Position numbers and translations under genes: made by a program. This document shows, one piece after another, positions 1 to 60,971 of a DNA stretch of 60,971 nucleotides. The first letter of the stretch is position 1. Each line of letters begins with the position of its first letter. Source of the DNA: a virus (taxonomy: Duplodnaviria > Caudoviricetes); the IMG/VR virus record IMGVR_UViG_3300007735_000770, positions 1 to 60,971 of that record; one strand, 5' to 3'. Below the pieces are notes generated by a model. That model saw only the letters and a list, made by a program, of their open reading frames with translations. It was not told where the DNA came from and did no database searches.

Positions 1-127
1 ACGGTATGCTCTGTCCAACCATCGTAGTATCCGTGTTCGTTCATGTGGTGATACGAGGTAGTAAACACCAGTTTTTCGGCGTGCGATGTGTCGAAGTCAA
101 AATACGTGCCGTTGTCGAATCCGCTGC
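1..127. repeat. Terminal direct repeat, copy 1 (assembly overlap of a circular contig)
   Basis: Bases 1-127 are identical to 60845-60971; 127 is a common assembler k-mer; an ORF reads through the join. Confidence 0.95.
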
Positions 128-263
128 CGGATGGCATATGATCTTCCACCAGTTCGAGGATTGAATCCTCATGCTTATCACGCCATTCGGCGTTCCTAGT
201 TTTCTCGCAATTGCGCATCGCGCAAACTTTGCTTGCCAATTCGCTGTAGAGATAGCGTGCCAT
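1..263 (-). CDS. 5' part of an early phage protein spanning the circular join (continues to stop at 60721)
   Basis: AAGGAG RBS, ATG at 263, MARYLYSELASK...PSGSGFDNG...YHHMNEHGYYDGWTEH joins in frame with 60721..60912. Confidence 0.85.
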   Translation of the reverse strand, partial: MARYLYSELASKVCAMRNCEKTRNAEWRDKHEDSILELVEDHMPSGSGFDNGTYFDFDTSHAEKLVFTTSYHHMNEHGYYDGWTEHT

Positions 264-336
264 TGTGTTCTCCTTTTATCGGGCATATCGCCCACTAGCA
301 GCACCTTGATGCCGCTAATGGGGGGCAGGCCCCCTA
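264..336 (-). promoter_or_regulatory. Early-region intergenic hairpin + RBS module (variant copy)
   Basis: TAG stop followed by stem CCCATTAGCGGCAT/GTGCTGCTAGTGGG; shares CCCATTAGC..TAGTGGGC with the copies at 59773 and 60219; 70-nt gap. Confidence 0.7.
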
Positions 337-582
337 AACCGCATGGTTTAATTCGTCGTCAACAGCCGCTCGCGCCAGCGCTAGAATGTCGTCCGCATCT
401 CGGATGATTTGCGCGGCTTGCTTGGGAGTAAAACCCCATCGGAGTATCGCGTTTGCCGCGCGTTTACGTGCGGCTCTGAGCGAGCGTTCAGAGTGTCCGC
501 CGTTGCGACGATGCGACCAACGGTCGAGCGTAGCATTGCACGCTGCAATGTATTCATCTTGGATTTGCTGTAGGTTCTTCAT
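334..582 (-). CDS. Hypothetical early protein
   Basis: MKNLQQIQDEY..., start overlaps the upstream stop, GGAG RBS. Confidence 0.7.
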   Translation of the reverse strand: MKNLQQIQDEYIAACNATLDRWSHRRNGGHSERSLRAARKRAANAILRWGFTPKQAAQIIRDADDILALARAAVDDELNHAV

Positions 583-773
583 TATCGTGTCTCCATCCAT
601 TCCGGCATATCGCCGATATCGCCACCGCCACGCCGCCATACTTCATCGGCGAATTCACCCCAAATTGTTTCCGGCTCAACCAATGGGTGAGCGTATTGAG
701 TGCGAATGCCGTACAATACCGCGTCCATGTTGGCGGCCAGGCGGTAGGCAAGTGGCAAGTATGTGTAGATCAT
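582..773 (-). CDS. Hypothetical early protein, first gene of the early operon
   Basis: GAGGAG RBS, ATG at 773, just downstream of the predicted promoter. Confidence 0.6.
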   Translation of the reverse strand: MIYTYLPLAYRLAANMDAVLYGIRTQYAHPLVEPETIWGEFADEVWRRGGGDIGDMPEWMETR

Positions 774-8295: not shown

Positions 8296-9045
8296 TTATC
8301 CAAACAACCTCCCGTTCAAATGCGGCCCTTTAACGCCGCTCCACGTTGAGGCGCTGGCGTGATGCTCGATGCGATCCGCCAGCACTAGCGCCCGAGTTTC
8401 CTTTGACTTCGGAACGTATGGCCCAGACCACCGTACATCGATGCCGATGTTTCGCGCGACGTTGGTTGAGTCTGCGGATGATAATGGGATCTGAGAAAAG
8501 ATCGTTGGGTCAAGCATACGCAGCCCGTGCAACTTGCATTTCGGTACACCTCCACCGTAGCAAGCCACTTCCATGATTTCAGTCATGCGGCCCCACCATT
8601 TATCGCTTCCTATTTCCCAATACTCGCCTGAAGAACCGATCGCCACACGCCGAAAGGTAACCGCTAGGTAATCCATTCTGCTCAGGCTTTCGTGCATGTG
8701 GTAAACAGGCACAGATTCAAACTGCTGGTTTTCACTCATCCATTGATCAAGTAGTTCGTCGTTTTCCGCCTCGGTGCCGTCGATCTTGTCCGGTACGAGG
8801 CACCAGTCAAAGCCAGGATGGTTGCACCATGTTGCAACCCACTCGCGATATGCACCAACGTCGATGTCGCCTTTTCCAGCGGTAAACAGCGGGTAAGCTC
8901 CATTATCGAGAGAAAAAGACTGGCATACCTCAGCGGCAATCTCAATTTGGTCTGGGTTAGCAAACGAGATCATGGCGTGACGACGGCTCCACGCGGCAAT
9001 AGCTGCTGTGCGTGGAGTGATTGGTCCTCCGTGGTAGTGAATCAC
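8296..9045 (-). CDS. TGT/DpdA-like TIM-barrel protein, putative base-exchange or DNA-modification enzyme
   Basis: LDNGAY, VPDKIDG, VPVYH, VAIGSS, KLHGLRM, SSADST follow the motif order of TGT/DpdA proteins. Confidence 0.55.
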   Translation of the reverse strand: MIHYHGGPITPRTAAIAAWSRRHAMISFANPDQIEIAAEVCQSFSLDNGAYPLFTAGKGDIDVGAYREWVATWCNHPGFDWCLVPDKIDGTEAENDELLDQWMSENQQFESVPVYHMHESLSRMDYLAVTFRRVAIGSSGEYWEIGSDKWWGRMTEIMEVACYGGGVPKCKLHGLRMLDPTIFSQIPLSSADSTNVARNIGIDVRWSGPYVPKSKETRALVLADRIEHHASASTWSGVKGPHLNGRLFG

Positions 9046-17108: not shown

Positions 17109-17594
17109 TTAGAAGGGAGTCGTGTCGTCCGCAGCCGCTACTGGTTCTTCTGTCGCAGGCGGCGCAACGTACTCGTCGGCCACGCCCATCATGCCGAGGA
17201 TACGCGACACGTCATCCTCGGTAGCCGCTTTGGCTTCGGTGATGCCGTTCAGCCACTTCACGCGCACTGAGCGCTCGACAGCACCGCCCTGCGTGGTGAA
17301 CTCGTGAAGCTCGGTTTCGATCTTGCACTCGCGGCCTTTGAGGAACTTTTCAGGATCACGAAGCAAGTACGGGTATGTTCCTTCCCAGATCTCAGGGTTG
17401 AGTTCTCCAACAACCTTCTTGGTCTGCGCCAGTGCGTTTGGCGTGAAGTATAGGTTGTGGTCGATGAACCCTTGTCCTTCAACCTGGATCCGCACCTTCA
17501 GCGACGACGTTACGCCGCCGTCTTTTTTCTCCAGCGTCTCCAGCCGTGCGCGGTGGATCACTCCACGGTAGATGCTATTGGGCAGAATTGGCAT
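17109..17594 (-). CDS. ssDNA-binding protein-like (OB fold, acidic tail)
   Basis: C-terminal ADDTTPF; lies in the recombination module. Confidence 0.7.
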   Translation of the reverse strand: MPILPNSIYRGVIHRARLETLEKKDGGVTSSLKVRIQVEGQGFIDHNLYFTPNALAQTKKVVGELNPEIWEGTYPYLLRDPEKFLKGRECKIETELHEFTTQGGAVERSVRVKWLNGITEAKAATEDDVSRILGMMGVADEYVAPPATEEPVAAADDTTPF

Positions 17595-18297
17595 TCACTT
17601 GCTCCTTTACGGTTTCAATCTCTTCCGGCATCCGCATGGGCGTAGCCGCAATCACTTCTTCCATCGTCGGTCCATCAAACCGATCGGTCATCCCGGCACC
17701 ACTGACTTCCTGCGCATAGATCGCGCCGAAGTCATGAATCACTTTAGCGAACAGCATCCGACGCGGGTACTTGTCGTAGGTGCCGTTGGCTTCCTGTTTT
17801 TCGCCTTGTTTAGGCGTGGTGCGTGCGCGTTCGACGAGGCCAGCTTTTTGCGCGTCAGCAATCGTCCAGCAGATCGTGAGCGGTTTGCCGGTTGCGTCCT
17901 TCATTTCCTCGCCGTTCTTGTAGAAAACGAACTCGGCTTTTGCGTCGGTGTGTTCAACGGGACGCCAATCGTAGCCAGCACGCTTCAATAGGAACGCGCG
18001 TCCCTTGTAATCGAGAACAGGTTTGTACGTGTCGCCCTTCATTGGGTACAGGTAGATCCATTCTTGCGACTGGATCTCATTGAACCCGTATGCACGACCG
18101 TACTTGATCTGAAGTTCGATCTTCGGCGCAACTACGCCAGTGGCGAGCGAAGCCCGCTGTGCGGACATCTGGTCGATGGCCTGCTGTTGGATTTCACGCC
18201 TGAGTTGCGCGTCTTCAACCAACTGCATCAGGTCGATGAGACTGGTCGTATTCTGTGTCTGTGTGGCCGAAGGTTTCGGCGGCGGTTGGGGGTTCAT
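17575..18297 (-). CDS. RecT-like single-strand annealing protein
   Basis: WTIADAQKAGL...YDKYPRRMLFAK. Confidence 0.7.
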   Translation of the reverse strand: MNPQPPPKPSATQTQNTTSLIDLMQLVEDAQLRREIQQQAIDQMSAQRASLATGVVAPKIELQIKYGRAYGFNEIQSQEWIYLYPMKGDTYKPVLDYKGRAFLLKRAGYDWRPVEHTDAKAEFVFYKNGEEMKDATGKPLTICWTIADAQKAGLVERARTTPKQGEKQEANGTYDKYPRRMLFAKVIHDFGAIYAQEVSGAGMTDRFDGPTMEEVIAATPMRMPEEIETVKEQVNANSAQ

Positions 18298-18956
18298 TTT
18301 TGAATGCTCCGTACTCCTGGCAATACCAGGGCTTGTTTATCGGCCTGCGCTCTTTGATTCAGCGCAGGCATGTTCGGCAATACATACGACTCCGGTACCA
18401 CGCCATCAGCGACAGCGCGGCACAGCTTCTTGATGTCCGTCACCTCAGCGCCCCATCGGCGGGTGATACCAAGGCCAGTTACCTTCTCATACGTCGGCGC
18501 GGCGATGGGAGGCGGGACGTATGGGGCAGGTTCAACGTAAACTTCTTCTGCGCCTTCCGCAATAGCCGCCTGCAGCGCTTCTTCTTCCCGCCGCTTGCGC
18601 TCTTCCTCAGCAGCAGCGCGGGCTTCCGCTTCGAGACGCGCTTGTTCAGCGCGGCGAATGGATTCCTGCTCGTCTTGCCACTTGATGATCGACGCCTTGA
18701 GCGTAGACTCAGCCTCAGTGATCGGCTTCAGGTACTCGCCTTCTTTGGCCGTGATCGTCTTGTGGGCCTTGTGAGCTGCTTCCTTCATTGGGGCAAATTC
18801 TTCGACAATCTTTTTCCGCCAGTCGCTCAACGTGATCTTGAACTCCGCCGCCTGCTTGTAGTCGTCGGCGGTTCGGATCACGATAGCCTTGGCTTTCTCG
18901 GGCAGTGTTAGTGCCTCAGGGAACTCCGGTGTTGCTGTCATCTCTCCCTCTTCCAT
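18294..18956 (-). CDS. Coiled-coil recombination-module protein
   Basis: Long helical region and C-terminal LPGVR; sits between the nuclease and the annealase. Confidence 0.6.
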   Translation of the reverse strand: MEEGEMTATPEFPEALTLPEKAKAIVIRTADDYKQAAEFKITLSDWRKKIVEEFAPMKEAAHKAHKTITAKEGEYLKPITEAESTLKASIIKWQDEQESIRRAEQARLEAEARAAAEEERKRREEEALQAAIAEGAEEVYVEPAPYVPPPIAAPTYEKVTGLGITRRWGAEVTDIKKLCRAVADGVVPESYVLPNMPALNQRAQADKQALVLPGVRSIQK

Positions 18957-48400: not shown

Positions 48401-50931
48401 ATGATAGCGGGGAAGTGAAGCCGACAACCGAACAGCGGATGTCAGTCCAACAACTCCCCGTCAACGGTCGCATATTCGCCGAGCCAGACAGCCGCAGTCA
48501 GCTCCGAAAGCAGATCGACGAACTGAAGTCTGGCGCTACGCCTGGGGCGCTCGGTGGCGCTGGACTATCGCTTCGCCAGCAAGCGCTCGACGCGAGGGCA
48601 GGGATCGAGAAGCTGTCGCAGCAAGTTGGCACGGCGACAAATGCCAAGGTCGGATCGATCCCTGCTGTCCGTGCGGCTGACGTGTCCAGCGAATACGCTT
48701 CTGCTGCACTGAAGAACGGTGGGCTTGAGTTCGTCGGCACTCCCGGCAATGGATACTTCCGCGCTAAGAAAGACGGTCCTGCTCCGTTTGGCAAGGATGG
48801 TTTTTTCACCAAGGCGTACAATAACGGCAAGCTCGACCGAGTGTTCCATTACATTGCTGGTAAGCGAGGCCAGGAACTAATGGCGCAGGGCCGCGAAAAG
48901 TTGATGACGCCGCAGCAGATTGCTGAGTACGTCAACTACGGCAATGATGCTGAAGTGCGAGATGCGGCGCAGCAGTGGAAGCAGTTCAATGACAGCGTCG
49001 TCGATGCAGTGCAAGCGTCTGGACGTATCGATGCCGCCACCGCTGCCGACTGGAAGGCGAAGACGTACCTGCCGTTTTATCGCGTTGACCCTGACACCGG
49101 GGCAGTCACAGCGCAAGGGCCTGGGGCGTTGAGCGGAACCGGAAATATTCAGAAATTAAAAGGTAGCACTCGCGAGATCGCCGATCCTATTGAGAACATC
49201 GTTCGCAACGTCAACGCACTCACGTCCATGGCGATGAAGAACGAAGCCATGCAGCGTGTGGCTCGCGATGGGATGCAGATGGGGTACATGAAGCAGGCGC
49301 AAAAAGGATCGCCTGCCAAAAACCAAGTCACGCTGTACGTCGACGGCAAGCCTAAGAAGTTTGTCATCACTGATCCAATTCTTTACGAGTCTGTCACCGC
49401 CTCACGGATACCAGCCAGTACTGTGATGAAACTTGCCGCGATGCCGGGAAACTTCCTGCGCGAGTCTGTCACCCTCTTTCCTGCCTTCATGGTGCGCAAC
49501 ATGCTTCGCGACTCGATGATGGTGTGGGCGCAGGGATACACGCCGGTCCCATTCGCCAACATTGCAGCCGATGCGACCAAAGCACTAAAGGAAGCCGAGT
49601 CGTTCAAGAACTTGGAGCGCCTTGGCGTAGTCGATGCAGGGATCCGTGGTGATGGCGGCGCTGGCGGTACTGCCGCCAACATCAGAGGACTGATGGACGG
49701 ACCAACAAAGAACCCGCTGAAGTGGTTCCAAGATAAGTCCAAGAAGTCGGAAGCGGCGAACCGCATCACCGTCTTTGAATCCGTCATGAAACGCACTGGC
49801 GGCGATGAGGCGCAGGCTGCTTTCGAGGCGCGGGAACTACTGAACTTCAACCGTCGCGGGGCCAGTCCGATCGCGCAGGTACTCACCGCTATGACGCCGT
49901 TCCTTAACGCCCGGTGGCAGGGGTTGGATGTGGCGTATCGGTCGGCTATGGGCAAGGGCGCTAATCCGCAGATGAAATCTCAAATGCTTCGCCGTGCTGC
50001 GTACCTCGGAGCGCTATCTACGATCTACGCTGCGCTTGTCAGCCAACTCCCTGCATGGCAGAATGCCACCCCTGAGGAGCGCGACAACAACTGGTTTGTG
50101 CCGACTGGTGATGGCGAAGCGGTGAAGGTGCCGATTCCATTTGAGTTTGGCTTTGTGGCTAAGGTTTTGCCTGAACGGTTTGTGGCGGCTGCGATGGGGA
50201 ATGAGGAGTGGACTGAAGCACTCAGTTCGTTTGATCGCTTCCTGCGTGGAAATATGAAACTCGACATGCCTCACGTTATCAACCCGGTGTACGAGGTCAG
50301 CAACAACATGGACCGATTCCGTGGGCGAGAGATCGAGCAGCCGTGGATGCGGAAGCTGGATAAGGACTACCGCTACGATGAGAACACCAGCGAGTTAGCG
50401 AAGGAGGTGGCGCGGTACAGCAGTCTCTCCCCAGTCCAACTAGACCACATCCTGCGTGGGTACCTCGGCACTAGCGCCATGTACGCTGTAAATCTCGCTG
50501 ACGTGCTGGCTGGCCCAGACCCGACCGGAACAGTAGCCGACATCCCTGACCGCAAACTCAGCCAGATGCCGGTATTCGGCAGCATGTTCCAGCGCGAAGA
50601 CGGCGCTCGCAAGCTGCTTGAGTTCTACGAGATCCGCAACGTAGCCGAGCAAGCCAAGAACACCCTGTCTATGCTGGCAAAGTCCAAGACGCCAGCCGAA
50701 GAAGGCGACCGCGAGCGTCTGAACAAAGCAGCGAAGGTTGAGACTGCGACACGCGCTACCGACAAGCGCATGAGTGACATGACCAAAGTGGAGCGGCAAG
50801 TACGTGGCGACATCAAGGCTGGGAATATAACGCCAGCGCAAGGGCGCAAGGTACTCGAAGAATTACGCAAGCGGAAGCTAGAGTTGGCCGCGCCGGTCAT
50901 CGAGCGCTACAAAGACGCCATCAAGCCATAG
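45493..50931 (+). CDS. Large polyvalent injected protein with an HExxH zincin-like domain and an LPD38-like C-terminus
   Basis: LHHEAVH..EEAIA; YLPFYR; RNMLRD; SEAANR; NFNRRG; PFLNARWQG; VPIPFEFG; SPVQLDHILRGY. Confidence 0.8.
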   Translation: MKKRVYYRGYGIVEIPEGASPEQIWAILDAKKASESGEDLMPVFEQPRKPEEPGFLSQVAKNVKAGVAAIPGALINTAAALPEMIGAVTAGEPEAGPGYGANVGLHQLSAPMLDAAKFIRDNPVSRYLSEVPQDQKDDAGNPVIGRQIGDVAGQVAGMMIPGAAGMRGAKALSYILGASQQASQVQQDADRKRAAGMAIAPEDSAAAAVAAMPSAALDAFNIGRIGRFLPGYAKHEALKQAAEISGQSYLRPALETGLSALGGAAVESGQQLAANAAIKSTYDPAQALDEGLMDNAIAGGGADAGLELINQILLRKTAKNIHTRRQNIAAERARQSAPEVLPGDEEAIGIRSQMDGTPEVKYVQQRRPTRNEILDELSLGLYGKPLSELDAQRGMHLDRSYEDLRKMGMSDQEVIDHLTQPIDLAPDPVQRPTPGLPTALPPDAPPVRLTDEGAIDASAVQYPSFLDQIMAQEPALYERLQGQDVVNSLLANPSEPRGVTPNKPRPKPPVQNAILTDEGAIATDQQPTEIRREGIRPMPTREQIIAEATAARQQAEQLKSQRRAEADAIRLQKKQSQVTVPETGIANERDADARQRVSRELFGRNFDQLTPEQITEVDSYRAEGLGEAVQPQEIAEINEFADLPFSRDQYRSALEVGRAAGVNTRPVSMTAVAKQAKVKPEVATQIINHMVTRGDAQLIDGKVIVDPTAMGPRYNLGQPTPSPNTVASQRQLLEEGKQSELANSIFGEMQRLGVDDIVSTRLVDNLKVQPNAKGSYANQIISLAMAVQDPKAMKETLHHEAVHAMKAMGLFNDAEWNILQGALNPNSVLSDDERRQYGEIYGDRPDIIQEEAIARGLERYMAGQLSLDGPAKDIAAQKMSTLQRIGNAFKSNNMQSPADVASAFKSGEIGRREGNYAVNNAVANDQAGVDTERRISAEAGTTQDIPAVDAAKATEAVDQYDIRAWLTDTDDSGEVKPTTEQRMSVQQLPVNGRIFAEPDSRSQLRKQIDELKSGATPGALGGAGLSLRQQALDARAGIEKLSQQVGTATNAKVGSIPAVRAADVSSEYASAALKNGGLEFVGTPGNGYFRAKKDGPAPFGKDGFFTKAYNNGKLDRVFHYIAGKRGQELMAQGREKLMTPQQIAEYVNYGNDAEVRDAAQQWKQFNDSVVDAVQASGRIDAATAADWKAKTYLPFYRVDPDTGAVTAQGPGALSGTGNIQKLKGSTREIADPIENIVRNVNALTSMAMKNEAMQRVARDGMQMGYMKQAQKGSPAKNQVTLYVDGKPKKFVITDPILYESVTASRIPASTVMKLAAMPGNFLRESVTLFPAFMVRNMLRDSMMVWAQGYTPVPFANIAADATKALKEAESFKNLERLGVVDAGIRGDGGAGGTAANIRGLMDGPTKNPLKWFQDKSKKSEAANRITVFESVMKRTGGDEAQAAFEARELLNFNRRGASPIAQVLTAMTPFLNARWQGLDVAYRSAMGKGANPQMKSQMLRRAAYLGALSTIYAALVSQLPAWQNATPEERDNNWFVPTGDGEAVKVPIPFEFGFVAKVLPERFVAAAMGNEEWTEALSSFDRFLRGNMKLDMPHVINPVYEVSNNMDRFRGREIEQPWMRKLDKDYRYDENTSELAKEVARYSSLSPVQLDHILRGYLGTSAMYAVNLADVLAGPDPTGTVADIPDRKLSQMPVFGSMFQREDGARKLLEFYEIRNVAEQAKNTLSMLAKSKTPAEEGDRERLNKAAKVETATRATDKRMSDMTKVERQVRGDIKAGNITPAQGRKVLEELRKRKLELAAPVIERYKDAIKP

Positions 50932-51547
50932 GCTCGGCCACGCCAATCCATCCCAATACCCTGCCGTTCGATGACATCGAATGTGCTTTCAGTCTCACTG
51001 GAACAATCACCCCATCTGAGGCAATATAGCGGGCGGCAAGGTTAAAGTCAGCGCCTTCGCTAACGACCCGCGCCCACTCGCTGAACACCCGGTTGGCATC
51101 GTCTGGGTGAATAAAGTTCTTCCAGTTGCTGCCCAGGATCTCGCCCTCGCCCATCTTCAGCAACTCGCACAACTCAGAGTTCGCCGCTGTGCATCTGCCG
51201 TTTGAGTCCGACTCCCACCCTGCCACGCCAGCCGCCATCTTCCATCGCGTCTGGTGCCTCACGTCGATGCGGACTATCGAGTCGCCAAGTTCATCAATCT
51301 TCCGTGCTGTACGGTCAATAGCATCCCTTAAACTGCTACCCCCGTTCGGCTTCACTTCTTTCAGAAGGGCATCGAATCGATCGGGTAGCGCATTCAATCG
51401 TTCAATTGCTTTAGCGATCTGGTAAACCATACGGGCATATCTCCAAACTGCTGGAGCGATTTTTGTCGCCACTAACACGGCGGTTGCGGCGAACAGATAG
51501 ACAGTCGGGTGAGCATCCTTCAGATGTGCAATCACCATACCGCTCAT
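50921..51547 (-). CDS. Membrane-anchored protein with a C-terminal PAS domain
   Basis: Hydrophobic N-terminus, KPNGGSSLRDAIDR, then WESDSNGRC..AN..C, G.NW..FIHPDD, GRVLGWIG. Confidence 0.85.
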   Translation of the reverse strand: MSGMVIAHLKDAHPTVYLFAATAVLVATKIAPAVWRYARMVYQIAKAIERLNALPDRFDALLKEVKPNGGSSLRDAIDRTARKIDELGDSIVRIDVRHQTRWKMAAGVAGWESDSNGRCTAANSELCELLKMGEGEILGSNWKNFIHPDDANRVFSEWARVVSEGADFNLAARYIASDGVIVPVRLKAHSMSSNGRVLGWIGVAEPMA

Positions 51548-51632: not shown

Positions 51633-52469
51633 CTATTTCAACATCTCCGCCATGGCGTTTGATGCGTTGCGGGTGAAGTCGGGGGCCAGCTTCATGTACA
51701 CGCGCTCGGTTATCGCCGTGGATGAATGCCCGAGCAATCGCGATACCTCCAAGACAGGGACTCCATTGGAGATAAGATGGCTGGCGACTGAATGCCGCAT
51801 CGTATGCGGCACCGCGCCATCAATCCCCGCCAACTTGCAAGCCTTCTTCCACTGCCAAACGAACCGATCCCGCGAGATCATCTCCCCTTCATTGGTGATT
51901 ACGTAGCGCGGCGACTTGCCACGGCACTCGTCCAGTATCACCTTGATCGCTGGCGTAACCGGGATCACCCCGCGCCGCTTGTGACGCCGCGACATGCCGA
52001 TGTTGAAGTCAATCACTCCGTGCTGGATCTGCTCCCACTGGAGCGTCAGAACGGCAGTGATCCGTTGCCCGGTGAGAAACGACAGGTTTAGCACCCAGTC
52101 GAACCAGATCGGCACGTCTACACGCCGCCCCACCTCCAGCAACTTCTGCATCTCCTCCTTCGTCAGCCACCGCTGCCTGGGCTTCGACTCCGCTGGCGTC
52201 TTCCACTTCGGCGTCTCCGCGATCAGCTTCTGGTCGAGCAGCCACTTGGAAAACACCGACAGATCGGCCAGCGACCGGCGTACCGTCGACGCGGAGTAGG
52301 TTTTCAGTAGTCTGGCAATCTCCTTACCCACGGCCTCGCTCGTAAACTGCTTCGGCGCGAGCTTATGCAGCCCAGTGAACTGCTTCCAACTCGTCGTCGC
52401 GCGGCGACCGCAGATCACCTTGTCGTTATGCTGTCGCCACCAGATTTGGTAGTGGTCGGTGAGAGTCAT
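51633..52469 (-). CDS. int: Tyrosine recombinase / integrase, short form without an arm-binding domain
   Basis: TGQR, K, HTMRH, LGHS, RVY catalytic residues. Confidence 0.92.
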   Translation of the reverse strand: MTLTDHYQIWWRQHNDKVICGRRATTSWKQFTGLHKLAPKQFTSEAVGKEIARLLKTYSASTVRRSLADLSVFSKWLLDQKLIAETPKWKTPAESKPRQRWLTKEEMQKLLEVGRRVDVPIWFDWVLNLSFLTGQRITAVLTLQWEQIQHGVIDFNIGMSRRHKRRGVIPVTPAIKVILDECRGKSPRYVITNEGEMISRDRFVWQWKKACKLAGIDGAVPHTMRHSVASHLISNGVPVLEVSRLLGHSSTAITERVYMKLAPDFTRNASNAMAEMLK

Positions 52470-53803: not shown

Positions 53804-54385
53804 ACATCCTCTCCTCCTTCGTCAAGTACACCCGCGACCGCAACAGCCAAACCTTCAGTGAGATATCCAGCCAAGCCCACGCTGCGATCGCACGCCACAC
53901 GCCGCCGTGGATCTCGCGCAGCATCCGGCGGCACGGTACCGCCAGCATCTGGTCGCGGATGGGAGAAGGGAACAGACCCTCGGCGTCCATGTGCATTGTT
54001 CTGATGAGGACGCTACGCGCTGTCTCGATGCTCATGTTGCTCCTCTTCCCGCGCCAGCAGCGAAGCCTTGAACTCCGCGTGTTCCAGTGTGAGCAAGAAC
54101 TTCCGGTACTCCTTCGCCCTTGCCGCCTCTTCCGCCCGCTTGATGCAGGCAATCAGTTCCTCGTGTATACTCATATCAGTCACTCCTATCCGTCCTCCAC
54201 CCCGCCGCCTTCAATCTCCTTGGGCGGCGGTGGTGTTTAGAGGGTATCCGCCAGTTGCTTTGCTTCTTCTAGTTGGGCCTGCAAGTCCCACTTCAACTCA
54301 CATCGCGGCCCAACCTCCCGCATCTCCGTCGTCAGCAGCTTCAACTCCAGCGCCAGTTCGTCGAGCTTTCGTAGTGTTTCGTCCA

Positions 54386-54844
54386 TTACAGTTCTCCCAT
54401 CGCGACTCTCAATTTAGCCAAAGCCTTAGACTTCAGCCTTGAATAGTAAGCCTCGGTCGTACCCATGATCCTCGCGGCTTCGGATTGCGGAGTCTCGTCC
54501 CAATAGCACGCTTGCAGTACCGCCAATTCCTTCGCCGTCAAAACATCGACCGCCCGTCGCAGCCGTACGCGCACTTCGGAATCCAAGGCTATGCGCTCTT
54601 GCCTCGGTTCTCCGGTCGGCATCCACCAAATCGTTTGCAGGCATTGGCGGCGTGTCCCGCGTGATCCCGGATTGCAGCGGCGCAGGTATCCGATGATGGC
54701 CCGCTTGGCGGCAATTACTTCGCAGCCTTCACGCGCTTGCAAGGCACCAAGTACGGCCTCGCTGGTGATGTCGTCAAGCTCGTTTCCGGGTGGAAGTCCG
54801 CGCCAAATGAAATAAGCGAGGCGCTTGATACGCTCCATCACCAC
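54386..54844 (-). CDS. Compact sigma70-family factor (FliA/ECF-like regions 2 and 4)
   Basis: ELDDITSEAVLGALQA, AIIGYLRR, LTAKELAVL..CYW...QSEAARIMG.TEAYYSRL..KALAKLR. Confidence 0.8.
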   Translation of the reverse strand: MVMERIKRLAYFIWRGLPPGNELDDITSEAVLGALQAREGCEVIAAKRAIIGYLRRCNPGSRGTRRQCLQTIWWMPTGEPRQERIALDSEVRVRLRRAVDVLTAKELAVLQACYWDETPQSEAARIMGTTEAYYSRLKSKALAKLRVAMGEL

Positions 54845-55150
54845 ACCCCCACCGCATGAAGGATCGTGCCTAGGCCAAGCGTTAGGCAGATGCCGAGAGA
54901 CGCCCAGCGCTGGTTGTCGTCTACCCAGTCATCGATCCACACGCAGATGCCGATGGTGGCGACGATCAAGCCGCAGATCACGCTGCATACCGCGCCCATC
55001 ACAGCACCCCCAACGCGCGGAGGATGGTGATGAGGCCGAGAACAGAAGCAGTTCCGCCTGATATGCGCTTATCCTCTGCGATCACCGATATGCCGCCGAC
55101 GAACAGCATGAAGCCGCTCAGGCCCACACAAATCCGAACCAAAATATCCG

Positions 55151-55351
55151 TCATCCTTCTCTCCTTTTAAACCGCTTCTCCGCCAACACAAACACCCGCG
55201 TAGCCTTGACGTAGTAGGACCGGACGATCCCGGCCTTCTCAAGCCGGACCAGCGTTGTGTGTACGTTGGGGGCCTTCTTGCCTGATCGCCGCGCCACCTC
55301 GGAAGCCGTCCCCGGTAGGTGCGACGTTAAGAACAACTGCTTCAGTGTCAT
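55151..55351 (-). CDS. Winged-HTH protein
   Basis: TASEVARRSG..APNVHTTLVRLEKAGIV. Confidence 0.7.
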   Translation of the reverse strand: MTLKQLFLTSHLPGTASEVARRSGKKAPNVHTTLVRLEKAGIVRSYYVKATRVFVLAEKRFKRREG

Positions 55352-55373
55352 AATACTTCCACAGCTTAACATG

Positions 55374-55586
55374 TTACCCGCGCTGCCGCAACCGATAAAT
55401 CGACCGCAGCCGCCCGTTATTTTTCTCAAACGCCTCCTCCAGCACGCCATGGTCCCGCGCCCACGACAGACCGCGCTGCACGTTGCCGGAAGCCATACCC
55501 GACACCTCGCACAGCGCTTGCCGGGACACCCACTCATAGCCCACGTATGGCGCTACATCGTCCCAGTGTGAACGGCAGGTGGTCAT
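55374..55586 (-). CDS. Winged-HTH-like protein
   Basis: SRQALCEVSGMASGNVQRGLSWARDHGVLE. Confidence 0.6.
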   Translation of the reverse strand: MTTCRSHWDDVAPYVGYEWVSRQALCEVSGMASGNVQRGLSWARDHGVLEEAFEKNNGRLRSIYRLRQRG

Positions 55587-55795
55587 ACATCCACCCGCCC
55601 GTTCAGCATCTCCAGTACGGCACGCCGCGCGGCCCTGGCCGACCTCTCTCGCAGTAGCCTATCCGCCAAGGCGTCGATCGCGTGTTCCAAGGCGGACGCC
55701 TCTGCGGACAGGTAACTGTTGCCAGTCTGCTCTAACTTGTTCAGCACCCAGGCGTGACGCTTCTCTAGTTCGGTGATGGCTTTACTTGTCGTCAT
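55583..55795 (-). CDS. Hypothetical protein
   Basis: GAGGAG RBS, MTTSKAITEL. Confidence 0.55.
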   Translation of the reverse strand: MTTSKAITELEKRHAWVLNKLEQTGNSYLSAEASALEHAIDALADRLLRERSARAARRAVLEMLNGRVDV

Positions 55796-55856
55796 TTTGA
55801 ACTCCTCACCAGCCACACCACGCCAGCTAGCCATAGAACCAAGCAGATGGCGGTGG

Positions 55857-56108
55857 TCATGCGGACTCCTTGGTAAACATCGGCTCATGCTCCATCGATC
55901 CGCCCAGTTCAGTCACCACCGCCAATGCTTTGTCGTGGTGCTGCTGGTACTCGTCAATGATCGACTGGAGCGACTGCCCGCTCTGCCCCCACTCAAGCGA
56001 GGCATCTCTCCCTCGTGCCGCTGCTTTTGCGCGGTACAAGTTATCAGCCGCTCTGCCTGCTTCATCTTTTGCCAAGCGGATCAACGCCGCTTTTGTTTCC
56101 TGTGTCAT
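55857..56108 (-). CDS. Hypothetical protein
   Basis: MTQETKAAL..., purine-rich RBS. Confidence 0.6.
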   Translation of the reverse strand: MTQETKAALIRLAKDEAGRAADNLYRAKAAARGRDASLEWGQSGQSLQSIIDEYQQHHDKALAVVTELGGSMEHEPMFTKESA

Positions 56109-57095
56109 ACCCTTCCCTCTCTTCTCCACCCGCTCCCTATACGGTCTGTCACACCGCATAAGCAGCGGTGCTGGTTTTGACGGCCCAGCACCGGCTACTG
56201 AATCGACGGTCTAAAGCGTTCGCTTTACTCGATAGCATCACCTCCCTTCACCTTCATCTCTAACAACTCCTTCACCGCCGCCGCTGCCTCGCCCCAGGCG
56301 GGGCTGTGCGACTCACCGCGATGCACTAAATACTCGGCCAGCCTGTCCCGGTCCTCTATCGCCAGCCTCAGCAGGTAGTCGCGGGTGGCGGCGGTCATGG
56401 CTTTACCGCTTTCAACTCAGCCAGTTCAATACGGCATTGCTCCAGTTCTTCGCCAAGCACCTTCATCGCGTCGCGCCTCGATTGCAACAGTGACCGACTC
56501 TCCAGCGCTTCCCGCACCGCATAATACAAGTCAGAAGCGGCGGACTCATCGGTCGGCACTTTACCCGTTTCCAGTATCCGCATCAGTTCGCGCAATGCTC
56601 TATCTGACAGTCCCATTGGATTCCTCCGCTTCTGGCACCAACGCCGGACGCCTTTTCTGTTCAGCGTAGTACGCCTTCCACAACGCCGTTCTCGCGTCGT
56701 TAATGTCTGGAGGCAGCGCGTCAATCGTAAACCCCCACTCATGACGCAAGCGTCCTAGTTGGTGGATAGCGGCCTCGATGCACTCAAGCCGCGCTTTGTG
56801 GCTGTAGAACACTACATCAGCAGCGTGTACCCCTGTGGTTAAGCTTTTCATCTCATCTCCTCTACGGGCTTTACGCCGCCCGCTGGCGATCCTCCCACCC
56901 CATCTCCCGGCACACCGCCAGCGCGGCCCACAACATATAACCGCTCCCCTGTGCCATCTTCAGCGTCTCCCGTTTGCCATACCACCACGGCATGAAATCG
57001 CCGTGCTTCGACACCGGGCCGTCCATCCACTTCTTCCCCTGGCTTCGCCGTCCGCAGGATACGGCAGCACTCGGCTGTGACGTAGCAGTAGGTCT

Positions 57096-57344
57096 TCATG
57101 CGTGCATACCTCTCACATAATCGACCATCTCCCGGTACTCCCGCGATACCGTTCCAGCCGCAACCATCCGCTCAATATACGCCGCCCGGATCGACCATTG
57201 CGCCTCGCTAATTGATGAGGCATACGCCCTCCTTCCGATCACCTTAACCACACAGTCGGAGTCCTTCGGATCACAGATATCGTAGCCCGCCGTGAGGCCG
57301 ATAACGATGCCTGTCTTGTTGTCGTACAGTCTGTATGTCGTCAT
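57096..57344 (-). CDS. Hypothetical early protein
   Basis: GGAG RBS and ATG. Confidence 0.65.
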   Translation of the reverse strand: MTTYRLYDNKTGIVIGLTAGYDICDPKDSDCVVKVIGRRAYASSISEAQWSIRAAYIERMVAAGTVSREYREMVDYVRGMHA

Positions 57345-57586
57345 TCTCTTCTCCGGTGTCCTTTATCACCGCTGGAAGGCACCCCGCAGGATGCCGCCCA
57401 GTGGCGGGGCTGTCGCCAGCCCGGCCGGACGCCTTAGCGCCTACTCCGTTCTATCTCGTCCTCTTCGGTTATCATCCGTCTCATGCGGCCACCCCTTCCT
57501 TATAGACAACCGCGCCATCGTCGCCGAAGTCTAAGCTCCACGGTCCCTCTGTATGTCTCATCCGTCTCCTTCTCTCTCGTACAGCC

Positions 57587-57634
57587 TAAGCCGTCCGCCC
57601 CTGCCGTCTGTCACCCGGCAGAGAATGCGGCCTA
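57587..57634 (-). promoter_or_regulatory. Early-region hairpin module
   Basis: TAGGCCG..CTCTGCCG-loop-CGGCAGGG..CGGCTTA; 70-nt gap. Confidence 0.7.
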
Positions 57635-57800
57635 GCGCGAGTAGTAGTACCACCGACCGCCGTACATGCGCCTGTAGTGCCGTGGATCTGACAACCCACC
57701 ACCACGATAAAACGCGGCCTTCGTTATCCTCATCGGTACTCCCTCCACGCCCACCACAACGCCAGCACGCCCAGCGCCCAGATGAACAAATACGCTACGC

Positions 57801-57974
57801 TCATACCTTTACCCTCCGCTTAATCACCTTGCAAGCCGCTTCCGGCTGATTGGCGCGGTATTCCTTCAATCGCGCCCTGGCATCCTTCCACGTGTCCTCA
57901 TAGCACACTTCCTCCCACTGGCCCCAGTACTGCCATATCTGGTATTCGTCGCGGGTTTTGCGTTGGTAGGCCAT
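57801..57974 (-). CDS. Small early protein (not in the ORF track)
   Basis: MAYQRKTRDEYQIWQYWGQWEEVCYE..LKEYRANQP; TAATG overlap. Confidence 0.7.
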   Translation of the reverse strand: MAYQRKTRDEYQIWQYWGQWEEVCYEDTWKDARARLKEYRANQPEAACKVIKRRVKV

Positions 57975-58291
57975 TAGATCACCCCCATAACGCCGTACCC
58001 CTGCTTTTCAAGCCACGCATAGACCGACTCGCGGCCAGCATCGGGACAGTCACCCCCAAACACCTCGGACAACGCTTGCGAGAGCTTATCGTAGCCGTAG
58101 CCGCCCGCCTTTGCTGTCTTCTTGGGCATGTCCTTCAACGGTCCATCCCAAATCCCAACGGTAGCCGTACAAACGCTACCCATCGGGTTGTCGCTCCAAT
58201 TAGCGACGATGCGCCCGGCGAATTTGCCGTCAAACGTCAACGCTACCGCTGTAACGCTCTTAACGTGTGCCATATCGTATGCAGTCTTCAT
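57974..58291 (-). CDS. Hypothetical early protein
   Basis: AGGYGYDKLSQAL; strong RBS. Confidence 0.8.
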   Translation of the reverse strand: MKTAYDMAHVKSVTAVALTFDGKFAGRIVANWSDNPMGSVCTATVGIWDGPLKDMPKKTAKAGGYGYDKLSQALSEVFGGDCPDAGRESVYAWLEKQGYGVMGVI

Positions 58292-58313
58292 ATCTCTCCT
58301 CTTTTCTGGGCCG

Positions 58314-58363
58314 GAATCCGCCCCCCCAGACCTACCGCGCGGGTAGGGCTGAGGCGGGGACTA
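58314..58363 (-). promoter_or_regulatory. Early-region hairpin module
   Basis: TAGTCC..CCTACC-loop-GGTAGG..GGATTC; 69-nt gap. Confidence 0.75.
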
Positions 58364-58642
58364 GCGGACCTCAAAAAACTTCGCGTTCCCTTCGACGTAG
58401 CGGAAACCACCGCCAGTGGCGCGAATCCGTTCATGGGTGCCGTACCGCTCAGAGTGGACGGTGATAGATTCCACTTTCAACCCGTGAATAGCCGGGTGAT
58501 ACTTCCCCTTGGAGTCTGTGAACGCCGCGTAGGTGACGGTATCGCCTACGCTAATGCCGTTTTCGGATGTGGTAACTTCGCGGGTTCCTTTGAAATGGCT
58601 ATGAATGCCGTTGCAGGTGACTGAATGTAGTTCTGTGAACAT
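58361..58642 (-). CDS. Hypothetical early protein
   Basis: RBS and ATG, TAG stop. Confidence 0.75.
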   Translation of the reverse strand: MFTELHSVTCNGIHSHFKGTREVTTSENGISVGDTVTYAAFTDSKGKYHPAIHGLKVESITVHSERYGTHERIRATGGGFRYVEGNAKFFEVR

Positions 58643-58655
58643 GGTTTTCTCTTTC

Positions 58656-58949
58656 CTACGCTATCCCTACCGCCGCCCGCGATTCCTCAACCCGTTGCCG
58701 ATATGAGGAATACTCTCCGACCTCATGAGGCTCGGCACATTGGTGCCAGTACCGCCCGTCCACCTTCGTTGATCGGTACAGTACCCCATGGGCATTGATA
58801 CCGCCGATCCGCTCGCCTTTCAGGTTGTAGAGCAATACCCCGTTAGCATTGCGTTTGTACCATCCAACGGCGGTACCGCCCGTCTGGAATAGCGTATCGG
58901 TTACCGTACGTTTCCCGTTGGCAAATTTCTTGCCGTTCAATATCAACAT
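58656..58949 (-). CDS. Hypothetical early protein
   Basis: GAGGA RBS and ATG. Confidence 0.75.
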   Translation of the reverse strand: MLILNGKKFANGKRTVTDTLFQTGGTAVGWYKRNANGVLLYNLKGERIGGINAHGVLYRSTKVDGRYWHQCAEPHEVGEYSSYRQRVEESRAAVGIA

Positions 58950-58970
58950 GGTTTCCTCTTTTCCAAGCCG

Positions 58971-59021
58971 TAATCCGACTCCCCCAAGCCACTCTAAGGA
59001 ATGACGTGGGAGCGCGGACTA
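58971..59021 (-). promoter_or_regulatory. Early-region hairpin module
   Basis: TAGTCCG..GTCATTC-CTTA-GAGTGGC..CGGATTA; 69-nt gap. Confidence 0.75.
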
Positions 59022-59219
59022 ATAGCTCCTGTTAATCACCATGCGGCCCTGATGGTATAGCACCCACCACGCGCCATGCTTCACAGCGTTATAGTGGTGC
59101 ATCTGAGAACCGGATACCCCTCCCATATCGTCATAGACCCACGCGATAGCATCGCGTTTTGTGGGGAAGATTGAAACCCGTTCCCGCATGTTGGCGCTTG
59201 CTTGTTCCCTGGTTATCAT
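59019..59219 (-). CDS. Hypothetical early protein
   Basis: AAGGGGG RBS and ATG. Confidence 0.65.
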   Translation of the reverse strand: MITREQASANMRERVSIFPTKRDAIAWVYDDMGGVSGSQMHHYNAVKHGAWWVLYHQGRMVINRSY

Positions 59220-59228
59220 CGTTCCCCC

Positions 59229-59741
59229 TTATGCAATCAAATCATTAGGACAGTGCAGCATGTTCGCAGCATATCCCCAGTCACCCCGCATTGCCCCCAT
59301 GAGCGACCGCCAGTCGGTCACGGTATGCGAGTGCTTACGGAAATACGCAACACGTTCGCGCATGTCGTAGCAGTCGCGCCATACCGTCTCGCATTCCTCA
59401 TCTTCGAGCTGTGAAAACAGGTCTTCATCCAATACTGGATAGTCATCCAGCCGCGCCAACGCTTTATCGGCTACTTCGAGCGCGGCCGTGTTGGATTCGT
59501 GAATAGCAATCCACTCCACCCAACCAACGGCCCAATGGGACTCGCGGACTACCTGCAAACCGAATTCGTCACCTGCCTCAACTTCAGGACACTCCTTTAA
59601 TAGCGTTAACATCGCTTGGAAGTTGGCACGTTCCAAGGCGTCAGAGTCGCGCGATTGGCCAACACCCGCGCTATACCAGTCTTCCCACGTTGCGCCCATG
59701 TAGTACTGCGGGCGAGTCCATTTTTGAATGTGAGTATGCAT
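59229..59741 (-). CDS. Hypothetical early protein
   Basis: SRDSDALERANF, HWAVGWVEW, LDDYPVLDED. Confidence 0.8.
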   Translation of the reverse strand: MHTHIQKWTRPQYYMGATWEDWYSAGVGQSRDSDALERANFQAMLTLLKECPEVEAGDEFGLQVVRESHWAVGWVEWIAIHESNTAALEVADKALARLDDYPVLDEDLFSQLEDEECETVWRDCYDMRERVAYFRKHSHTVTDWRSLMGAMRGDWGYAANMLHCPNDLIA

Positions 59742-59772
59742 TGTCTCTCCTTTATCGGTAGGCTAATCGCCA

Positions 59773-59816
59773 TCCCCCATGCCCACTATCGCTAATGGGA
59801 CAGGGGGAGGGGACTA
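59773..59816 (-). repeat. 44-bp exact direct repeat (hairpin module), copy 1
   Basis: tcccccatgcccactatcgctaatgggacagggggaggggacta is identical to 60219-60262. Confidence 0.95.
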
Positions 59817-60188
59817 GTACGCTTTATTCGTACCCTTCCAGAAATGCTTCCCATCGGAAATGAGCGATCCATCCCCATCGGGAAATAGCGCGCGCCACTC
59901 CTCAAACTTTGCGTAGTACTTGCCGTCTGGACCCAACATCCGGTACTCCAGATGTTGATATATACTCATGTTCCCCGGACCATAGAACAGGTGCGTATTG
60001 ATAGCCCGCACGGCGTGACGGCGGAACATCGGCAATCGCTTAAAATCGATTGAAGCGGACAGTTTATCCCACGCGATCATGACTTCAGCATGGGTCCATT
60101 TGCAGACCACGGCGGTCTGATAGTTTTCCCGCACGCTGGCTATGCATCGCGCCTCTCGTTCGGTATCGCGGTCTAGTTTGGTTCGCAT
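59814..60188 (-). CDS. Hypothetical early protein flanked by identical repeats
   Basis: AAGGAG RBS and ATG. Confidence 0.75.
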   Translation of the reverse strand: MRTKLDRDTEREARCIASVRENYQTAVVCKWTHAEVMIAWDKLSASIDFKRLPMFRRHAVRAINTHLFYGPGNMSIYQHLEYRMLGPDGKYYAKFEEWRALFPDGDGSLISDGKHFWKGTNKAY

Positions 60189-60218
60189 CTCATCTCTCCT
60201 TCTGTCGCGGTAATCCGC

Positions 60219-60262
60219 TCCCCCATGCCCACTATCGCTAATGGGACAGGGGGAGGGGACTA
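60219..60262 (-). repeat. 44-bp exact direct repeat (hairpin module), copy 2
   Basis: Identical to 59773-59816. Confidence 0.95.
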
Positions 60263-60703
60263 CTCCTGATTTGCCGCAATAACAGCCGCGATAACCGAAT
60301 CAGTGGCGAACGCGGACGCCTTCACGCAGAAACAATCCAGCGTTTCACTTGCAAATGGTTCGCTGGCGTTGCCAAGGTAATAGATTCCCTCATACTCCGG
60401 GAATCCATCGTCACTAACGCCTACTTGGTAGTCTTTCATATCTTCCTCTGAACACAAAAGCGAGTCGAGCTTGCCACGGTCGCACGCCTCATCTAGCGCG
60501 TCCTGTTCACTGTATGCGTAGTACTCCGCGAAGACAATCGCTAGCACATAGCCAGCATTGTGGATCACCCATGCGCGGTCCATGCGCGCATCGCTTCCGT
60601 CAAACTCGCCACTATCGGCGTTGACGAAGTCTTCAGGCGAGTACCGAAACTCGAAATTGTCGCGCGTGATAACGCGGTCGGTCGTGTTTACCTTGGTCAT
60701 CAT
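60260..60703 (-). CDS. Acidic hypothetical early protein
   Basis: EQDALDEA.D, YLGNASEPF; AAGGAG RBS. Confidence 0.8.
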   Translation of the reverse strand: MMTKVNTTDRVITRDNFEFRYSPEDFVNADSGEFDGSDARMDRAWVIHNAGYVLAIVFAEYYAYSEQDALDEACDRGKLDSLLCSEEDMKDYQVGVSDDGFPEYEGIYYLGNASEPFASETLDCFCVKASAFATDSVIAAVIAANQE

Positions 60704-60720
60704 TCTCTCCTTATCGCGCG

Positions 60721-60971
60721 TTAGCGCGTCACTTCCGTCTGTAGTGCATTGGCAAACACTTCCCCGATATACGATTTGATATCGTTCCGATTCCTGCCAC
60801 TAACGCGGATGTTGAATCCGCCAATAAAAGATGGCGTGATCGTAACGGTATGCTCTGTCCAACCATCGTAGTATCCGTGTTCGTTCATGTGGTGATACGA
60901 GGTAGTAAACACCAGTTTTTCGGCGTGCGATGTGTCGAAGTCAAAATACGTGCCGTTGTCGAATCCGCTGC
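60721..60971 (-). CDS. 3' part of the gene spanning the circular join
   Basis: In frame with the ORF starting at 263. Confidence 0.85.
   Translation of the reverse strand, partial: SGFDNGTYFDFDTSHAEKLVFTTSYHHMNEHGYYDGWTEHTVTITPSFIGGFNIRVSGRNRNDIKSYIGEVFANALQTEVTR
60845..60971. repeat. Terminal direct repeat, copy 2
   Basis: Identical to 1-127. Confidence 0.95.

Follow-up and report, generated by a model that had tools for sequence, protein, structure and literature searches.

What are the six spacers of nearly equal length that punctuate a leftward operon of small genes in the uncultured tailed phage IMGVR_UViG_3300007735_000770 (Duplodnaviria; Caudoviricetes), and what do they do for the phage? 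The DNA analysed here (hereafter the window) comprises the 60,971 nucleotides of that IMG/VR record, and each spacer, named H1 to H6, is a module in which a stop codon opens into a hairpin. An original prediction, made from the window alone, took these modules for a standardised expression joint, with RNA processing or stabilisation as its most likely role and recombination between gene cassettes as a more speculative one. According to our analysis, H2–H6 are paralogous copies of one structured sense-strand RNA element, while H1 is a diverged relative, and wild variants of the phage differ in gene content at these very places. Regarding their function, we favour, with a probability of about one half, sense-strand RNA joints that process or stabilise the early polycistronic mRNA, in a way similar to the RNase III sites of phage T7, and that double as homologies for cassette exchange, as do the elements of T4-like phages known as PeSLs.

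Six hairpin modules and their kinship

All six gaps were recovered where they had been predicted, measuring 70, 71, 72, 69, 69 and 70 nt for H1 to H6 (76, 77, 78, 75, 75 and 76 nt when stop and start codons are included; Table 1), and all six share one layout on the minus strand, i.e., a TAG stop codon, a bulged hairpin of 48–56 nt, a linker, a purine-rich Shine–Dalgarno sequence (SD) and an ATG. The stem bases are also as quoted (TAGTCC..GGATTA in H2 and H4, TAGTCC..GGATTC in H5, TAGGCCG..CGGCTTA in H6), while the statement that TAG itself forms the base of the stem holds for five copies out of six: TAG provides the first stem pairs of H2, H3, H4 and H6 in every fold (4/6), H5 folded alone pairs it only from its A onward, and H1 is the copy for which the statement fails. 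The hairpins gather 18–22 pairs in 46–53 nt (five copies measured) and form near-continuous helices, in which only two conserved places are disturbed, by 1-nt bulges and 1x1 mismatches, with C-rich 5' arms and G-rich 3' arms in all six modules. The 3' end of the stem lies 17–24 nt before the ATG (five modules measured), and the SD is unpaired or weakly paired in the predicted folds.

These structures are more stable than expected from their dinucleotide composition (shuffle z-scores in Table 1), with minimum free energies (MFE) of -24.8 to -33.3 kcal/mol that rank all six among the most stable 0.01–0.23% of the genome's minus-strand 56-nt windows. In six modules out of six, predicted folding is stronger for the sense strand than for its complement, by 3.7–13.7 kcal/mol, and shuffle z-scores controlled for composition favour the former in all six as well (mean -4.3 vs. 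-2.4). Along with the single orientation of the modules and the fixed register from stop codon to SD, this strand bias favours a role in RNA; the same strand acting as single-stranded DNA stays compatible with the strand data.

When aligned, H2–H6 show a mean column identity of 72% and have in common a base (TAGTCC/GGATTA, or TAGGCC/GGCTTA in H6), a middle stem made of a C-tract and a G-tract, and two conserved small bulges, while the upper stem and the loop are variable. RNAalifold recovers 21 pairs from this alignment, nine of them with compensatory changes, and the third pair is G-U in all five copies. Paired cells amount to 88.2%, against 76.3% in column shuffles (0/500 as high), two-sided changes in 9/21 pairs were reached by one shuffle out of 500, and registers slid by 1–3 columns leave 39–59% of the cells paired, so that the predicted maintenance of pairing in spite of differing stem sequences is borne out for H2–H6. 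Two of these copies, H2 and H3, are identical over the first 44 nt from TAG and share no letter upstream of it; what H1 has in common with H2/H3 is limited to two upper-stem words, a 10-mer and an 8-mer. The idea of six like modules must thus be narrowed: H2–H6 do form one family, but H1 has diverged from it, and H2 and H3 are not independent copies.

To look for the element elsewhere, a covariance model (R1) was built from H2–H6. Across the window, it retrieved its own five sources only (next match at E 0.29), H1 not being matched at E up to 10. The scan of related phages suggested by the original prediction brought little: in 69 loci, R1 yielded no match with an E-value of 1 or less and, in 24 further loci, only three (E 0.69–3.1), i.e., none at E ≤0.1 in all 93 related loci. 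Moreover, the two matches obtained in IMG/VR with an IUPAC pattern of the H2/H4 stem do not fold into the module hairpin, and an Rfam scan of the whole window yielded no match at gathering score. Since R1 finds nothing convincing in related loci, the sequence family is lineage-specific, being restricted to the lineage of this phage.

Gene gain and loss in wild variants

DNA nearly identical to that of the window is present in viral, riverine, lake and seawater metagenome runs, none of those listed being recorded as RNA. We mapped contigs of four runs from four studies (X4, riverine; X6; X8, lake water; X11, seawater) to positions 55000-60971 at ≥80% likeness and recorded the joints at which they depart from the window. 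The clearest one belongs to X4, where a 2868-nt contig covers 57742-59772 and then 60219-60729, skipping 446 nt. At this joint (59772/60219), 44 letters fit both sides, which is the 44-nt repeat of H2 and H3, and a single hairpin replaces H2, the gene of 124 amino acids (aa) and H3; correspondingly, the depth in X4 is 0–0.36 over 59800-60199 (the 124-aa gene) vs. 11.8 beside it. A 1408-nt contig of X6 skips 212 nt, from 59020 to 59233, with four other letters in between: this variant lacks the 66-aa gene, and its 170-aa gene ends at a TAG abutting H4, as it does in distant relatives. As for X8, one contig has 36 letters in place of the 79 nt at 59733-59813, hence a net 43 nt missing; by eye, these letters match the SD, the linker and the 3' foot of the stem, which means that most of the H3 hairpin is gone while both flanking genes are kept. 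Finally, X11 skips the 97-aa gene (308 nt), from the linker of H4 (58956) to the spacer of the next gene (58647).

The level of divergence also changes at two of these joints, with 26/2031 letters differing on one side and 35/511 on the other in X4, and 14/133 vs. 9/561 in X8. Other matches stop at modules, at 58293 in X6 (the start codon just behind H5) and at 57588 in X4 (the 3' foot of H6), and variant contigs diverge at H6 (57586-57588 and 57634). Only islands of a second X4 contig match the window, one of them being the 3' arm of H4, a module touched by four of the joints listed. Over the block of open reading frames (ORFs) between H5 and H6 (57800-58199), depth falls to 0–1.9 in X6, X8 and X11. 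Altogether, each of the eight joints listed within 57500-60971 has one end or both at a module; counted by ends, 10 out of 16 fall there, modules making up ~10.5% of this interval. Gene gain and loss was the proposed test of a link with module positions, and the differences between natural variants do break at modules, exactly between the 44-nt copies in the case of X4. Gene turnover is a property of the whole operon, to which the modules add at least one event bearing the signature of homologous exchange between copies. An X11 joint from 60201 to 57586 had been considered as a translocation of the 124-aa gene; this was dropped, only ~17 letters of the SD region lying beyond the joint.

What the modules may do

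How could such modules serve the phage? Under the reading that we favour, the hairpins would act after transcription, their base holding the upstream TAG and the SD being left single-stranded. A double-strand-specific endoribonuclease, e.g., the host RNase III (the most likely enzyme if the RNA is processed), would cut the polycistronic RNA into gene blocks, presumably early in infection, as for the early mRNA of T7. Alternatively or additionally, each hairpin might shield the upstream RNA piece from 3' exonucleases, which would make the expression of each block independent of its neighbours. Recombination at the modules, possibly by a RecT-like protein and an exonuclease encoded by the phage, would also add, remove and swap gene blocks. 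Because the copies are alike over 30–44 nt, they are also patches of homology, and the effect of recombination is observed in nature whatever their primary role. The RecT-like/exonuclease pair is a candidate phage-borne recombination system that may use short homologies and a plausible agent of exchange, since RecT-type systems work with homologies of ~40–50 nt. Moreover, homologous recombination between hairpin copies, of the kind described for PeSLs in PMC2839356, would explain the joints without any site-specific enzyme. The preference of the original prediction for RNA processing or stabilisation is therefore retained as the likeliest reading, inasmuch as it fits the strand bias, the covariation, the absence of a U-tract, the fixed register and the number of pairs (~21–22).

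The RNase III sites of T7 early mRNA, which have counterparts in T3 and SP82, typically feature large internal loops. The modules resemble them in having at least 20 pairs, in occurring several times per operon, in the absence of a U-tract and in the SD that follows shortly after. For T7, ten such sites are reported in intergenic regions (PMC9135205), and the modules are likewise intergenic, their hairpins of roughly two helical turns separating genes that share a strand and a phage operon. They differ from the T7 sites in their near-continuous stems with 1-nt bulges, in the stop codon located inside the stem and in being clear sequence paralogs, while cleavage is a property that we infer for them. 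Regarding stabilisation, intergenic hairpins that protect the upstream RNA and set different levels for neighbouring genes are presented as a concept in PMC10667835. The modules share with bacterial operon stabilisers and with 3' hairpins of the repetitive extragenic palindrome (REP) type a stable stem-loop behind a cistron, but the latter are usually clear of the stop codon, whereas TAG is paired in five modules out of six. Unlike REPs, they do not show the conserved GTAG and occur in one orientation only.

Several observations weigh against this reading. Coding windows of 57600-60900, taken outside the hairpins, also fold better on the sense strand, by 2.5 kcal/mol, so that part of the strand difference of the modules reflects base composition; the argument that G-U pairs favour folding of the mRNA strand agrees with the six modules out of six but is weaker than claimed. 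Besides, 15 of the 56 stop-anchored hairpins found across all loci fold better on the antisense strand, and the covariation is based on five paralogs, two of which are nearly identical. The 1-nt bulges are not the large internal loops of T7 sites, hence any cleavage could differ, and a ribosome that stops at TAG has to open the lower stem, a drawback if the hairpin were purely a 3' stabiliser; both cleavage and stabilisation are roles that we infer, and purely so. Turning to gene flux, a single contig, whose matching sides span no more than 30–34 nt, accounts for three of the joints that touch modules, one X11 joint depends on ~17 matching letters, and the hairpin of a diverged relative may map to whichever hairpin of the window it most resembles. 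Eight further joints are listed in 55000-57500, a stretch free of hairpins of this family, mostly at gene borders, and they include three independent skips from 56389-56399 to 56849-56855 as well as one exact skip of an 82-aa gene. Since joints thus occur at borders without this family too, selection for intact genes alone could place many breakpoints.

RNA and DNA roles might also be combined more tightly than in the reading favoured above. The modules would then be dual-purpose cassette joints, in which an RNA insulator that supplies the stop codon is at the same time a DNA homology of 40–50 nt. As RNA, it would turn each gene block into an expression unit of its own, and as DNA, its length would barely suffice for the RecT-type annealing system of the phage to capture, delete or swap ORFan blocks among co-infecting relatives. 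We put this idea forward tentatively; if true, it would describe a homology-driven phage analogue of the integron, devoid of dedicated recombinase and promoter, of which the similar genome-specific module families of many uncultured phages would be further instances.

Among the alternatives, the hairpins might not be cut at all and serve as structural insulators that hide the spacer, block the loading of Rho on the C-rich arm, halt ribosome sliding and free the SD. The fixed register agrees with this, the stem running from the stop codon to 17–24 nt before the ATG with the SD left accessible, as do the C-rich 5' and G-rich 3' arms of all six copies and the way in which modules divide packed blocks of 1–4 genes. 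Yet most junctions of the operon work without a hairpin (overlaps or gaps of 9–18 nt), a stem of ~15 pairs would suffice, and the conserved base TAGTCC/GGATTA, with its G-U in 5/5 copies, suggests recognition by a factor, which makes an uncut insulator rather doubtful. It is also unlikely that gene exchange is the primary and selected role, i.e., that the modules are promoter-less counterparts of PeSLs shuffling blocks of ORFans inside one phage or among co-infecting relatives, any effect on RNA being secondary. This possibility draws on the precise 446-nt loss of a gene between identical 44-nt copies, on the eight module-touching joints out of eight listed in the module zone, on the divergence steps at H2/H3 and H3, on an H2/H3 identity that begins exactly at TAG and on the RecT-like and exonuclease proteins of the phage. 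In T4-like phages, PeSLs themselves are described as occupying the stretch from stop codon to SD of ORFans, in regions that are plastic and expressed early, where they bound indels and replacements between close relatives that are attributed to homologous recombination (PMC2839356, PMC4122927). The likeness extends to repeated stop-to-SD modules, a plastic region of ORFans, stems with G/C-tracts and indels bounded by modules. The promoter that defines PeSLs is, however, absent in or beside the six modules: a scan of the minus strand for sigma-70-like promoters found no site at any of them, and the whole 10.5-kb region holds five promoter-like sites, against 5.3 expected. In addition, there are six copies here vs. 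~50 per genome for PeSLs. Recombination requires identity rather than a hairpin, and copies that drift in sequence while compensatory changes preserve their pairing run counter to the demands on a homology patch. Likeness sufficient for efficient exchange (44 nt) is limited to H2 and H3, genes also come and go at module-free places, and selection for evolvability is weak.

At face value, the lake variant without a net 43 nt of H3 might be taken for the insertion or excision of a selfish miniature palindrome, akin to a REP or to a miniature inverted-repeat transposable element (MITE), that has spread through the operon spacers without any role for the phage, and the conserved base with a variable top could be read in the same way. 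We nevertheless rejected such an element, which we regard as decidedly unlikely: all six copies keep one orientation and one register, the rest of the 61-kb genome holds no copy, neither a transposase nor a REP-associated tyrosine transposase turned up among the 90 ORFs scanned against PHROG, the hairpin pattern is absent from IMG/VR except for two chance matches, and replication slippage that deletes a palindrome accounts for the X8 variant equally well. The modules might otherwise be terminators or attenuators devoid of a U-tract, placed between blocks and read through thanks to a phage antiterminator, as in lambda pL, whose layout of leftward accessory genes ending with an integrase is similar; PeSL stem-loops are reported to terminate in reporter tests (PMC2839356), and sigma-like and helix-turn-helix (HTH) proteins are encoded downstream. 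But the claim that these are not intrinsic terminators was upheld: the U-tract is missing in 6/6 and none was picked up by terminator scans, while the genome uses canonical U-tract sites elsewhere, which the same scans do find at 2252-2280(-), behind the primase gene, and at 1801-1817(+). Furthermore, antitermination would have to be very efficient to pass six stops within 3.5 kb, and no antiterminator was recognised in the PHROG scan, so that we deem this scenario very improbable. The least credible proposal treats the modules as integron-like attC sites, which the downstream integrase would recombine in folded, single-stranded form so as to insert or excise gene cassettes. It was inspired by bulged, imperfect hairpins that overlap the stop codon at the 3' end of genes, by borders of gene gain and loss, and by a tyrosine recombinase that is indeed encoded in the place announced, 5.1 kb beyond H6. 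It is contradicted on two defining features. The core motifs of attC sites (R'', RYYYAAC; R', GTTRRRY) are absent from both strands of all six modules, and the integrase scores 41.9 bits against the integron integrase model TIGR02249 (cut-off 265), through its C-terminal catalytic part only, and 29.8 bits against NF011946 (cut-off 435). It scores higher on Xer models, yet under their cut-offs, and is, judging from these profiles, a generic phage tyrosine recombinase, not an integron integrase. Since there is also no sign of a fixed crossover, and since the 44-nt identity at the clearest joint speaks for homologous rather than site-specific exchange, the recombination part of the original prediction survives for the breaks in gene content at modules but not for a mechanism relying on an integron-like Int. 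Readthrough or recoding of TAG was considered too, and rejected: there is no tRNA gene, only 2/6 gaps, as read from their sequences, can be traversed without a stop into the frame of the following gene, roughly as often as chance predicts, and the standard code leaves long genes uninterrupted.

Taken separately, the parts belong to known kinds, RNase III-type hairpins of phages on the one hand and shuffling seams of the PeSL type on the other; what sets the present case apart is their combination, i.e., a promoter-less, stop-codon-anchored family of hairpins at whose seams wild variants of an uncultured aquatic phage differ by single genes or by a hairpin. No counterpart for this combination was found in Rfam or in the literature searched (repeated intergenic stem-loops and phage early regions), although one may exist in print. 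The accessory regions of phages hold most of their unknown genes, including those for counter-defence, and, T4-like phages aside, the mechanisms of their fast turnover are not well understood; in this operon, river, lake and sea variants gain or lose single genes and, once, a hairpin, at seams demarcated by a promoter-less hairpin family. If the hairpins process or insulate the mRNA, they would constitute a compact natural part for expressing newly captured genes without tuning, which is of relevance for both phage evolution and operon design, and hairpin families can be used to delimit cassettes in uncultured phage genomes.

The operon, its phage and related loci

The window is a complete phage contig, of which the first 127 nt recur at the end (terminal overlap). 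PHROG and Pfam scans of its 90 ORFs revealed the gene set of a tailed phage: primase-polymerase, helicase and DpdA-like transglycosylase; large terminase, portal and major head protein; RecT-like annealing protein and two exonucleases, tyrosine integrase and a small sigma-like protein. The closest cultured terminases are those of the Pelagibacter phages HTVC023P and HTVC027P (44–46% identity across the C-terminal half). The large-terminase ORF is 900 aa long (19954-22656, +), but the terminases of cultured pelagiphages match residues 441–900 only, its N-terminal 440 aa matching other terminase/ATPase PHROGs; this corresponds to either a fusion or an over-long start call.

The operon of small ORFans is transcribed leftward on the minus strand, from a start at ~773, which adjoins a divergent AT-rich spacer, across the contig ends and down to the integrase gene (52469..51633). 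The modules set apart its tightly packed gene blocks (Table 1). Within the module zone (773 down to 57632), whose genes the original prediction assigned putatively to host takeover or anti-defence, there is no match to any Pfam or NCBIfam family, and only two weak PHROG families, both without assigned function, were detected.

Table 1. Coordinates of the hairpin modules, the direct repeat and selected genes in the window (z, dinucleotide-shuffle z-score; R1, covariance model score)
Feature	Position	Strand	Remarks
First two operon ORFs (63 and 82 aa), upstream of H1	334..773	-	from the ORF list
H1	264..336	-	TAG 334-336, hairpin, linker, SD; z -2.86; apical extension, other lower stem
128-aa ORF spanning the contig ends	5' part 1..263, 3' part 60721-60971	-	127-nt terminal overlap
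147-aa ORFan upstream of H2	60260..60703	-	from the ORF list
H2	60189..60262	-	TAG 60260-60262, 52-nt hairpin with 22 pairs, 22-nt linker with SD; precedes 124-aa gene; R1 66.7 bits; MFE -33.3 kcal/mol; z -5.94
44-nt direct repeat, H2 copy	60219..60262	-	TAG, 5' arm, loop, most of 3' arm
124-aa ORFan between both 44-nt repeats	59814..60188	-	without family match
H3	59742..59816	-	TAG 59814-59816, hairpin, linker with SD; precedes 170-aa gene; R1 52.4 bits; z -4.84
44-nt direct repeat, H3 copy	59773..59816	-	identical to 60219-60262
170-aa gene, function unassigned	59229..59741	-	sole array gene with many relatives
66-aa ORFan between 170-aa gene and H4	59019..59219	-	from the ORF list
H4	58950..59021	-	TAG 59019-59021, 51-nt hairpin, linker with SD; precedes 97-aa gene; R1 60.8 bits; z -4.87
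97-aa ORFan after H4	58656..58949	-	TAG end, then 13-nt gap without hairpin
93-aa ORFan upstream of H5	58361..58642	-	from the ORF list
H5	58292..58363	-	TAG 58361-58363, hairpin, linker with SD; precedes 105-aa gene; R1 59.4 bits; z -3.57
Three small ORFs (105, 57, 33-41 aa) between H5 and H6	57632..58291	-	from the ORF list
H6	57562..57634	-	TAG 57632-57634, 48-nt hairpin, linker with SD; precedes 26-aa ORF; R1 53.8 bits; z -3.63
Tyrosine recombinase gene, same leftward gene run	51633..52469	-	5.1 kb downstream of H6
RecT-like annealing protein and exonuclease genes	17575..18956	-	phrog_4171 at 6e-11; phrog_10477 at 6e-20

The 170-aa gene has relatives in 69 loci of IMG/VR and in 13 loci of genome contigs (best identity 58%), while its protein has no match in cultured phages and no usable match in the Atlas. 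For the 147-aa protein, no relative was found in IMG/VR and two distant ones in metagenome contigs; the 124-aa protein has none in IMG/VR, and relative searches with the 105-aa and 93-aa proteins were equally fruitless. The contigs of the closest relatives by primase (89% and 78% identity) stop short of the array. Several relatives of the 170-aa gene (e.g., in loci L001, L002 and L003) are directly followed by a stop-anchored hairpin of 40–95 nt and very different sequence, and a conserved one occurs in L005, L006, L007, L010 and L070. The orthologous hairpin after the 170-aa gene in six relatives has an invariant stem and thus gives no covariation signal. In L005, L006, L007, L010 and L070 (~6475-6630, +), this stem counts 12 GC-rich pairs, topped by an apical part that ranges from ~8 to ~60 nt, a pattern of conserved foot and variable top that is the same as in the window.

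Stop-anchored single hairpins in same-strand gaps number 56 across all loci, 41 of them folding better on the sense strand, and gap modules repeated within a locus were found in 18/64 locus sets (window included) vs. 6/3000 random between-locus pairs. Genome-specific intergenic modules are thus common in such ORFan arrays, the H family being one promoter-less kind. By eye, L077 (2241-8500), L012 (5888-11900), L024 (6830-7800) and L068 (3177-4840), all on the plus strand, have their own repeated hairpin families, which lie in gaps of 67–95 nt from stop codon to SD; these are contigs of uncultured phages or metagenome-assembled genomes that carry the 170-aa gene, and L068 has two TAG-anchored copies of 57 nt with compensatory changes in the upper stem. 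L073 (4735-7570) and L056 (3855-4880), also on the plus strand, have repeated gap modules with words that resemble, by eye, -35 and -10 boxes, the hairpin of L056 sitting between the two; they look like true PeSL-type promoter/stem-loop cassettes outside T4-like phages.

The operon contains other strong hairpins. Downstream of H6, the spacer that follows two tiny ORFs (26 and 16 aa) consists of two adjacent hairpins (57345-57437, -) and is the most stable minus-strand 56-nt window (-38.2 kcal/mol), ahead of an SD and an 82-aa gene; their architecture is unlike that of the H family, and R1 does not match them. Two more hairpins are strong on the sense strand (54153-54236 and 55657-55712, -), of which one adjoins a TAA stop, before an SD (-30 kcal/mol), and the other is a 54-nt stem (-32.8 kcal/mol) inside a predicted ORF of 70–101 aa.

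Further along the same operon, downstream of the hairpin zone, a 152-aa protein (54386-54844, -) matches sigma-70 region 4 (PF04545, 5e-9) and, weakly, region 2, below Pfam cut-offs, and a 128-aa protein (55151-55537, -) has weak winged-helix matches, below cut-offs as well; both are possible phage regulators. Directly downstream of the integrase gene lies the gene for a 208-aa PAS-domain protein (PF08447, 3e-14; 50921-51547, -), which is an unusual cargo for a phage. At 6765-9045 (-), a DpdA-like homolog of queuine tRNA-ribosyltransferase (phrog_887, 1e-63) is accompanied by a PAPS-reductase-like protein (phrog_424, 4e-30), which suggests a 7-deazaguanine modification of the phage DNA. Lastly, a 752-aa protein (9883-12141, +) without PHROG match includes two stretches that match the FCCH domain of the ubiquitin-activating enzyme E1 (PF16190, 2e-11).

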